A stretch of DNA of 54,996 nt from a virus (IMGVR_UViG_3300045988_171436:1-54996); one strand, 5' to 3'. Positions 38,705 through 39,765 are shown, counted from the first letter of the stretch. Translations and numbers: made by a program. Notes: generated by a model not told the origin, from the letters alone.

Positions 38705-38744
38705 GAAACCGCAGGTACGTTGTATGCAATAACGTGCTGCGGTT
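38705..38744. repeat. Conserved hairpin element, copy A (partner 39725-39765)
   Basis: GAAACC + stem + core ACGTTGTATGCAATAACGTGCT; stem AAACCGCAG/CTGCGGTTT. Confidence 0.6.
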
Positions 38745-38764
38745 TAATCTTATCAATTGAATAC

Positions 38765-39538
38765 TCAAAAATTAGGTGAGTAACGGACCGGGGACATAGC
38801 TCCTTTTTTTCTTAATTCATCTGGTATTTTTTTCCCAAGATAAAGATTTGCTATTTCAGGTGGGGCTTCTCGACCTTCAAAACCATAGCGAGAACTTTGT
38901 GTTGCCTCAAAGTCAGGATCCTCGTCCCAGTATTTCATCGTAGGGAAATTTTCACGTGTTGATTTGAGCCATTTATCAGCAATAAAAACCCCTCGAACGA
39001 TACCCCTTACAGTGGCAAGAATGACTTCTGCTTGACTGGCGCGCGAGGCATTGATGCGCCAGCTAAATCGAACCGCATCATAAAGCTCTGAATCCTTTGC
39101 ACTTCTGTTAACGGAAATCATTAATGCTTTATGATGAAATGTTATGGTTTCGGGTTGATATGTTGCTATCAACTCTTTGACATGCGCGGCGCCGAATTCA
39201 TTGCTGCCAGCACCATTCATGATATTCGTTAACCCAGGGTAGGCATCAATAAGTGCTGCTTCAACTTCGTACGCCGTCTTTTCATCAGTCATTCCATGTC
39301 GATGGATTACATGGATAACTTCAAGTCCCGCTAATCTTATTTCTCTGATTTGCTTTAGCTTGTTGCTCAGTAACTCGTCATCATCAGCCGCTGCCACTTC
39401 ACCGCGCATATGGGCAAATACGCGGTTACCTTTGCCTTTCCCTACATAGAAGGTGCTTCCGTCCCTAGGATCAATCAATCGGTATACATACCAGCCAAGG
39501 TGTTCAATTACTCCAGAAGGAAACTCAGTAATATCCAT
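38765..39538 (-). CDS. GIY-YIG nuclease domain protein (about 257 aa)
   Basis: [28 protein letters not shown] = GIY-(x10)-YVG motif with downstream Arg/His; upstream part of ORF starts at TTG so the ATG at 39538 is preferred. Confidence 0.6.
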
Positions 39539-39724
39539 TTTGCAATATCTGTGAATTATTTGTGAGACGTATATTAATGAACATTGCAAGGGCTCACAAC
39601 CAGTAGCTTTGAGAAAGCCATCGGGAAAATGAGGCTAACCCTTTGAATTTACATAGCGCAAAAAGATACCTTTCCTCATAATGTGAGCTAATTTTATGTT
39701 TCGTTTGATGATCGGATCGGTCTC

Positions 39725-39765
39725 GAAACCCGTAGCCACGTCGTATGCAAGAACGTGCTACGACT
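39725..39765. repeat. Conserved hairpin element, copy B
   Basis: GAAACC + stem + core ACGTCGTATGCAAGAACGTGCT; stem GTAGCC/GCTAC differs from copy A but pairing is preserved. Confidence 0.6.

Follow-up and report, generated by a model that had tools for sequence, protein, structure and literature searches.

The 54,996-nt viral sequence IMGVR_UViG_3300045988_171436:1-54996, analysed here over its whole length (the window), is from an E. coli prophage and carries a GIY-YIG gene bracketed by two copies of a hairpin-forming sequence. It is well supported that this hairpin is a reused prophage terminator in a conserved 3' module and not a feature of the GIY-YIG gene. The module, which we refer to as element E, is a conserved non-coding stretch of ~100 nt (window positions 39726-39824, minus strand) formed by the right-hand hairpin (copy B) and a 60-nt tail. 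Both hairpin copies are probably intrinsic (Rho-independent type) terminators read on the minus strand; for copies A and B themselves, we infer termination from the behavior of homologues. The finding is real but largely ordinary: a terminator shared by lambda-like prophages here flanks a known anti-phage gene.

Two hairpin copies in the window

Hairpin A (38706-38745, minus strand) lacks the tail and is the putative intrinsic terminator of the GIY-YIG gene. On the plus strand it consists of a 5' arm (AAACCGCAG, 38706-38714), a bulged G (38715), the inner arm TACGT, an 11-nt loop, the inner arm ACGTG and a 3' arm (CTGCGGTTT, 38737-38745); as a minus-strand read it is AAACCGCAG-CACGUUAUUGCAUACAACGUAC-CUGCGGUUUC. 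Hairpin B (39729-39764, minus strand) is the putative terminator stem-loop at the 3' end of E in the minus-strand sense. Its parts are the 5' arm CCCGTAG (39729-39735), a bulged C (39736), the inner arm CACGT, the loop CGTATGCAAGA, the inner arm ACGTG and the 3' arm CTACGAC (39758-39764). Hairpin A ends 19 nt past the GIY-YIG stop (38765), and B starts 190 nt ahead of the ATG (39538).

The two copies align over 36 nt without gaps (81% identity) at a spacing of 1021 bp. Their 22-nt core (ACGTYGTATGCAAKAACGTGCT), identical at 20 of 22 positions, occurs exactly twice in the window with up to three mismatches allowed, where the expected number is 0. Sequence and repeat search thus confirm the positions and core given in an earlier note on this DNA, as well as its distances to the gene of about 20 and about 190 nt. 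The ATTGAAT that the note described further out in both copies is not meaningful as a shared motif. The B occurrence belongs to the conserved 60-nt tail of E, and in A it lies within the 3' flank of the GIY-YIG gene and is missing from other copies of this flank (e.g., ACTTAAAG in locus L185). Its A/B match is one among ~30 short repeats of like quality in the region.

Each copy forms a stable G+C-rich stem-loop of 12 pairs with one bulge, and within each copy the arms are self-complementary (CCGCAG/CTGCGG in A, CGTAG/CTACG in B). Folding beats that of shuffled sequences on either strand (z of -2.8 to -4.6). The minus-strand folds have energies of -15.9 kcal/mol for A (z -3.45) and -21.6 kcal/mol for B (z -3.09).

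In copy B, the 3' arm CTACGAC also pairs with GTCGTA of the loop, giving an alternative hairpin (39742-39764) of similar energy. The minimum free energy fold of this copy takes the alternative loop pairing on both strands, which is peculiar to that stem variant. A run of nine G (38686-38694; with flanks, TTGGGGGGGGGCC) lies directly left of hairpin A, on the side of the minus-strand transcript end. Its length may differ among strains, as gene coordinates in locus L001 are shifted by 1 nt.

Conservation of pairing and the folded strand

We counted pairs of the named 12-pair stem in 57 distinct hairpins. RNAalifold, run on MAFFT alignments, was misled by the 1-nt bulge indel and gave structures that were shifted and uninformative, and therefore the bulged base was removed to keep the stem in register. 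Standard pairs fill 94.6% of the cells. Both sides changed at four pairs, in 36 cells (A-U/G-C/C-G at one pair, C-G/U-A at two and A-U/G-C at one). In none of 500 shuffles was the paired fraction, the number of double changes or the covariation score as high as in the real sequences; these figures overstate independence, as the collected sequences are related. When the partner was moved by 1-3 columns, pairing fell to 20-60%. Several distinct stem types are present, including CCGCAG, CCGTAG, CCGTGG, GCGGTAC, CCGCCG and CCGCGG. The covariation analysis that the earlier note proposed thus bears out, over 57 copies, its claim that stems that differ and still pair reflect selection on structure.

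The strands are not equivalent. Paired cells number 647 of 684 on the minus strand and 623 of 684 on the plus strand, with 41 and 17 G.U cells, respectively. Judged from these sequences, the excess of G.U over A.C is a single-strand feature. The 8 nt past the stem contain on average 4.6 U on the minus strand versus 2.6 on the plus strand, the commonest tails being UUUC and UUUU. In these sequences the G.U asymmetry and the U-rich tail point to the minus strand as the folded strand. Among the three roles that the earlier note left to choose from, an RNA structural element is the one that gained support, and a protein recognition site and the boundary of a mobile cassette did not. We found no Rfam family match with an E-value up to 1 between positions 36000 and 43000, and no tRNA or tmRNA fragment within the window.

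RNA 3' ends at homologous hairpins

E. coli K-12 has three copies of E, at the right ends of the Qin and Rac prophages and in the spacer between ykgJ and ecpE. The supplementary tables of a Term-seq study of strain MG1655 list 'orphan' RNA 3' ends (Adams et al., 2021, eLife 10:e62438; PMC7815308). For two K-12 3' ends, the 61-nt contexts printed there are the hairpin on its minus-sense strand. At the ykgJ-ecpE copy, ends at 304212/304213(-), 30-31 nt upstream of ykgJ, have scores of 87,904-99,298 in three conditions, and one row has 'No' in what we interpret as the Rho column (PMC7815308). At the Qin copy, ends at 1632571(+) and 1632574(+) have scores of 3283 and 2150 (PMC7815308). The ends lie 4-9 nt past the last stem pair, where the position of the end inside the printed strings is placed by analogy with the hupB and sraA rows. 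Thus, an RNA 3' end a few nt past the stem occurs in vivo for homologues, at two of the three K-12 copies. This geometry is that of intrinsic termination. We found no name for a transcript ending at 304212/3.

The hairpin resembles intrinsic terminators in its G+C-rich stem-loop followed by U, in the 3' ends at the two K-12 homologues, and in its place between the convergent tail-fibre operon and leftward genes. The A run before the stem and the T run after it would allow termination in both directions. It differs from them in its 11-nt loop, its bulged base and a U tract that is short or, in lambda, absent. Ordinary terminators also lack a conserved 60-nt upstream tail, and the hairpin here belongs to a recombining multicopy family.

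Several points weigh against termination. A processed end protected by the hairpin, or an exonuclease stop, would look the same as a terminated end, and the Rac copy has no listed 3' end in the MG1655 tables. The U tracts of the window copies (GGUUUC and GGGUUUCG) are short, with just UUU, and the lambda copy has no U tract at all (CUGCGGCUCUACC). Consensus promoter and terminator scans show no site at A, B or the lambda copy. The terminator scan accepts loops of up to 8 nt and needs at least 5 T in 8, and makes no call because the loop is 11 nt. Copy A is more stable on the plus strand (-24.6 versus -15.9 kcal/mol). The 60-nt tail is conserved, though a bare terminator would not need such a tail. 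Loop conservation is not judgeable from the 57 hairpins, as most of the loop was fixed in the pattern used to collect them. A literature search by sequence found the hairpin string printed in no paper, and a search of the literature on terminators of the lambda b region gave nothing usable.

Distribution of element E

The tail of E (39765-39824, minus strand) is 60 nt long and reads GGCTGG...CCAGCC...GATTTTAC (GATTTTRC) on the plus strand. A second stem within it, GGCTGG/CCAGCC, is weak. At one of its pairs, 10 sequences have A-T in place of G-C, which probably reflects a single lineage, and we regard this stem as tentative. To the right of E, the lambda-type flank (39825-39917) is homologous to lambda at ~24268-24360, and homology of the window to related E. 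coli prophages stops at ~39915-39922.

We identified E in 5407 of 5426 complete E. coli genomes, at 15,901 places (median 3 and maximum 9 per genome), and in 193 phage records. These include lambda, where E (24162-24267) lies between ea47 and ea31, 252 nt after ea31. The flanks are mosaic, with at least seven sequence types on the hairpin side and at least five on the tail side. Hairpin-only copies are of the window A, Rac and L025 types, and a further type (L009/L036) has the hairpin and ~25 nt of the tail. When viral contigs and a single genome from each species were scanned with the pattern, E or the hairpin was found only in Escherichia, Shigella, E. albertii, Citrobacter sedlakii and Scandinavium; a further match, on a contig labelled Chryseobacterium, is probably a contaminant.

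This distribution bears on the link between hairpin and GIY-YIG gene that the earlier note proposed to examine by a motif search with a test of co-occurrence. The motif is a common intergenic repeat, present in nearly all E. coli genomes, and the gene is missing from lambda and K-12, which do have the hairpin. Thus, a specific link is not supported.

The prophage cargo region

In the window prophage, baseplate and tail-fibre genes are followed by an acyltransferase gene and the GIY-YIG gene, and the prophage adjoins yagP/paoD. The last rightward gene of the late operon is a tail fibre assembly gene (36445-36885, plus strand; Caudo_TAP, E-value 3.7e-20), which is convergent with the leftward cargo genes. 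The acyltransferase cargo gene (Acyl_transf_3; 37146-38213, minus strand) lies between hairpin A and the tail module. The GIY-YIG gene (38765-39538, minus strand) is a prophage cargo gene for defence, PD-T4-3/CMoRE. Directly right of E is an open reading frame (ORF) of 461 amino acids (40102-41487, plus strand) with no match in Pfam or PADLOC and a full-length match to PHROG 37220 (unknown function). Given its place in the cargo region, it may be an accessory or defence gene.

We compared 138 non-redundant contexts of the element. In the commonest, a tail-fibre-assembly or pin gene on the plus strand has its stop 0-40 nt from the hairpin, on the hairpin side, and the tail side has an 82-amino-acid minus-strand gene of the DinI family that stops 7 nt from E. 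In a prophage integrated at argW, E lies 93 nt after the intS stop, between int and tail genes. Most copies adjoin dinI, an integrase gene or other cargo rather than a GIY-YIG gene. Without the rest of E, the hairpin also occurs after the stops of cargo genes that are unrelated to one another, including CMoRE (19 nt), a methyltransferase gene and a 215-amino-acid ORF, and the same hairpin trails the GIY-YIG gene in every other context examined. Because of these flanking-gene contexts and unrelated cargo stops, we consider the hairpin to mark the convergence of the rightward late operon with leftward int or cargo genes, with inserted cargo bringing or acquiring another copy.

Blocks bounded by two hairpins recur, with lengths of 1021, 1050, 1603 and 4171 bp. 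The 1021-bp block is that of the GIY-YIG gene. The 1050-bp block contains a methyltransferase gene, and its repeat of 148 bp includes the 3' end of the tail fibre assembly gene (tfa). The 4171-bp block encodes CMoRE, a cytosine methyltransferase and EcoRII. In L036 (12107-13303) and ~20 similar viral contigs, an S-adenosylmethionine-dependent methyltransferase gene is found between direct repeats of 148 bp that are 88.5% identical. The L036 repeat joins the final ~117 nt of the gene for tail-fibre assembly to the hairpin, and a fragment of a pin recombinase gene adjoins it. Between the two hairpin copies of one prophage, in L029 (9080-12939), are CMoRE, a 491-amino-acid ORF and a full EcoRII restriction endonuclease (Pfam EcoRII-N and EcoRII-C). 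From the annotated Dcm-type gene at the same place in L186, the 491-amino-acid ORF is taken to be a cytosine methyltransferase. The block amounts to a small defence island in a hairpin-bounded hotspot.

These observations suggest how the gene came to be bracketed. In E. coli prophages of the lambdoid and P22-like kinds, E (a 60-nt tail plus a 12-pair stem-loop that has a single bulged base and a few U after it) trails leftward genes, e.g., dinI or int, at the point where they meet the rightward tail-fibre operon. Copy B is the 3' end of E, and copy A, a hairpin-only version, would end the transcript of a cargo gene, here PD-T4-3/CMoRE, inserted between E and the tail genes. The gene would be flanked on both sides because the same terminator, in homologous copies, closes every leftward transcription unit in the hotspot, and the stems would differ yet pair because only pairing is selected in the stem. 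The duplication may have arisen via recombination of cargo blocks that bring their own terminator. As a secondary role, E could act as a homology patch for module exchange and for insertion of prophages into prophages (published as att-in-PP_2, see below), with exchange occurring at E because it is common to many prophages.

The arrangement is similar to lambdoid morons, which are accessory genes equipped with a promoter and terminator of their own, and to prophage defence hotspots, in which single cargo genes lie between the tail genes and the int/attachment (att) region, with a terminator after each. Moron-like cargo here includes the defence genes CMoRE and EcoRII with its methyltransferase. 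The difference is that here one hairpin, in homologous copies, serves as the terminator of different cargo genes, and direct repeats therefore flank the cargo blocks. In lambdoid and P22-like prophages of E. coli, the hairpin and E provide a convenient landmark for the hotspot of defence or virulence cargo at the tail-fibre end. They also give an identity to two strong, previously unassigned Term-seq 3' ends of K-12.

Element E as a possible site of recombination

A tentative alternative, less probable than termination, is that E is primarily a recombination site and that the copies are attL/attR-like scars of the insertion of a phage or cargo block. Nakamura et al. (2021, PLoS Pathog 17:e1009073; PMC8112680) described att-in-PP_2, a 96-bp sequence homologous to the ykgJ/ecpE spacer that flanks lambda-like prophages inserted into prophages. 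E aligns to the K-12 ykgJ-ecpE spacer over ~100 nt, and the published layout of 29 + 96 + 184 = 309 bp agrees with E and the sequence on either side of it, the spacer being 312 bp long. The two also share their length class and their location in lambdoid prophages beside exchangeable cargo loci. From length, homology and layout, E is very probably att-in-PP_2, a comparison made with the published description (bioRxiv version of PMC8112680), as the supplement holds no sequence text. The description and the 309-bp arithmetic favor a role in recombination, as do the mosaicism of both flanks of E, the recurrence of double-hairpin blocks, and chimeric stems (e.g., CCGTAG/CTGCGG in L185) that show crossovers inside the hairpin.

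The window copies themselves fit this role less well. The arms of each copy match, whereas a crossover in the loop between these parents would mix arms, and copy A shares just ~40 nt with E. The window repeats flank a 1-kb block that contains no integrase or other recombinase, versus a complete prophage between the att-in-PP_2 repeats. A precise cassette-free allele of the window junction is absent from the 5426 genomes; a composite empty-site query (left flank, hairpin and tail) was covered to at least 80% in none of them. In L011, the switch from window-type to generic sequence occurs near the right end of the tail, outside the hairpin. The neighboring IntS belongs to the prophage integrated at argW, where E is simply downstream of int. 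The mobile GIY-YIG cassette with hairpin boundaries that the earlier note suggested is thus not supported, given the non-chimeric arms and the lack of a cassette-free allele, although hairpin-bounded cargo blocks are nonetheless a recurrent architecture. We also rejected the view that the neighboring integrase uses the hairpin dyad as its core site for crossover, as IntS is of the argW type and the L011 switch is in the tail, not in the loop.

Nakamura et al. considered att-in-PP_2 an att site of chromosomal origin. The ykgJ-ecpE spacer of MG1655 (NC_000913.3, 304183-304494; L184, 1684-1995) contains a frameshifted DinI pseudogene and then E, and its 184-bp side is this pseudogene (tblastn E-value 2e-5, in two frames). 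Because a dinI pseudogene precedes E in the spacer, the chromosomal copy appears to be a scar left by a prophage, with the pseudogene followed by its putative terminator, and not the origin of the phage att sequence. A further difference from att-in-PP_2 as described is that the hairpin here is a covarying putative terminator.

Element E as a possible source of a small RNA

It is unlikely that E encodes a discrete, abundant small RNA (sRNA), derived from a 3' untranslated region or orphan, that has its own regulatory function and uses the hairpin as terminator or stability element. In favor is the ykgJ-ecpE Term-seq score of ~88,000-99,000, which is like that of the hupB terminator row (85,574) and far above the usual 1,000-3,000. 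In addition, the 60-nt tail is conserved regardless of the upstream gene, one GGCTGG/CCAGCC pair varies on both sides, and prophage-encoded multicopy sRNAs are known in E. coli (e.g., HnrS). However, there is no 5' end at E in the one supplement of transcription start sites that we searched, Rfam has no match, and ykgJ and ecpE are absent from RIL-seq-based sRNA prediction tables. The U tail is shorter than is usual in Hfq-dependent sRNAs, the covarying pair of the tail is probably confined to a single lineage, and copy A has no tail. A literature search for Hfq data on E gave nothing usable.

HnrS (EcOnc10-12) resembles E in being multicopy, carried by prophages and transcribed up to an intrinsic terminator. 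It is 66 nt long and occurs in enterohaemorrhagic and enteropathogenic E. coli, to which it is 99% restricted. HnrS was rejected as the identity of E, as it is restricted to strains positive for the locus of enterocyte effacement, whereas E occurs in nearly every E. coli genome, K-12 and lambda included; the two are told apart by description.

Two features of E stand out: the conserved tail of 60 nt, and the orphan 3' end of the ykgJ-ecpE copy in K-12, which is very strong. A combined role is also improbable, in which E would be a multicopy module that yields an abundant sRNA and is a dedicated docking sequence for cargo swaps and prophage-into-prophage insertion. If true, lambdoid and P22-like prophages would swap defence and virulence cargo through hairpin and tail. 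A functional RNA from E, or cargo exchange directed by it, would bear on the movement of defence genes between prophages; nothing here requires either.

The GIY-YIG protein

GIY-YIG domains occur in homing endonucleases, and the gene is bracketed by two dyad copies. It is nevertheless very improbable that the GIY-YIG protein acts as a homing or self-mobilising nuclease that recognizes the dyad as double-stranded DNA. The protein matches Pfam LEM-3_GIY-YIG (E-value 2.4e-14), PADLOC PD-T4-3 over its full length (E-value 3.3e-140) and PDB 9U75 (E-value 2.1e-172). By these matches, it is the known PD-T4-3/CMoRE and not a homing or site-specific enzyme, and nothing suggests that it recognizes the hairpins. 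CMoRE is a type IV restriction endonuclease that cuts phage DNA containing 5-hydroxymethylcytosine or its glucosylated form (PMC12923530), and its structures have been solved. As a modification-dependent enzyme with no cassette-free allele in the 5426 genomes, it is unlike a free-standing GIY-YIG homing endonuclease. The hairpin is present in ~5400 genomes, versus only 818 for the copy A type (at least 80% query coverage), and it occurs in lambda and K-12, where the gene is absent. The excess of G.U over A.C also argues for a single strand rather than a DNA duplex as the conserved form.

A minus-strand reading frame through the hairpin

There is hardly any chance that the conserved stretch is a gene for a small minus-strand protein (39694-39861, MQKIRKIDNSWKSFNTRTIGSSPASRSTFLHTTWLR...). 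Both the window and lambda have this frame open, the motif GGGAGG(A/T)GG lies upstream, and several differences between window and lambda are synonymous in frame. In the lambda-type flank (39825-39861, minus strand; ~24268-24300 in lambda J02459), a Shine-Dalgarno-like GGGAGGAGG with GGGAGG(A/T)GG is followed after 13 nt by an ATG. This ATG opens a non-conserved minus-strand ORF of 47-60 codons that runs through the hairpin. However, the ATG and Shine-Dalgarno sequence exist only in this flank type. Most copies have another right flank, which starts straight after GATTTTAC and often has the dinI stop 7 nt off. L028 and L029 have the lambda-type flank and nevertheless read ATA in place of the ATG. 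The Qin copy is frameshifted, and the C-terminus is wholly different between lambda and the window. As start codon and Shine-Dalgarno sequence are confined to one flank type and lost within it, the ORF is probably not a gene.

Other repeat families

Like repetitive extragenic palindromic (REP) sequences and bacterial interspersed mosaic elements (BIMEs), the hairpin is a repeated imperfect palindrome 3' of genes, and REP/BIME sequences have roles in the stability of RNA 3' ends. To our knowledge, E has no sequence similarity to the REP consensus. REP/BIME sequences number hundreds of copies, versus 1-9 of E per genome, borne by prophages and one prophage scar, and we saw no association with a RAYT (REP-associated tyrosine transposase) gene near E. 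With a median of three and a maximum of nine copies, E does not belong to this class. Integron attC sites and gene cassettes were rejected as well: neither A nor B contains RYYYAAC...GTTRRRY cores, and no IntI-type gene is nearby, the neighbors of hairpin copies being tail, pin, dinI and intS genes.

Annotation and assembly artefacts

In some examined E. coli genomes, RefSeq/PGAP (Prokaryotic Genome Annotation Pipeline) annotates a 'capsid protein' pseudogene of 81-99 nt on the plus strand of E. The label is found at 39749-39829 (plus strand) in the window, at 7450-7530 in L002 and at 3003-3101 in L005. A capsid protein remnant is unsupported, as the sequence has internal stops in K-12; it looks like an annotation artefact on a non-coding module, and E accounts for the label.

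In E. coli ETEC1706 (L186, ~5025-5075), upstream of the same GIY-YIG gene, hairpin B is severed in the loop and joined to a dinI-like 3' remnant. The other half of the hairpin and the entire tail of E are gone.

The remaining matches of the pattern scans, many of them in non-enteric genomes, were discarded as identical to lambda or as chance matches in apparent coding sequence. Stretches identical to lambda (~24.2 kb) were identified in assemblies labelled Streptomyces, Pseudomonas, Enterococcus, Vibrio, Chromatium and others (loci L127, L132, L135-L137, L141, L143, L153, L157, L166, L168-L170, L172, L174, L175, L177, L178 and L181). Many of these are short contigs of low coverage, and the stretches most likely reflect contamination with lambda DNA.

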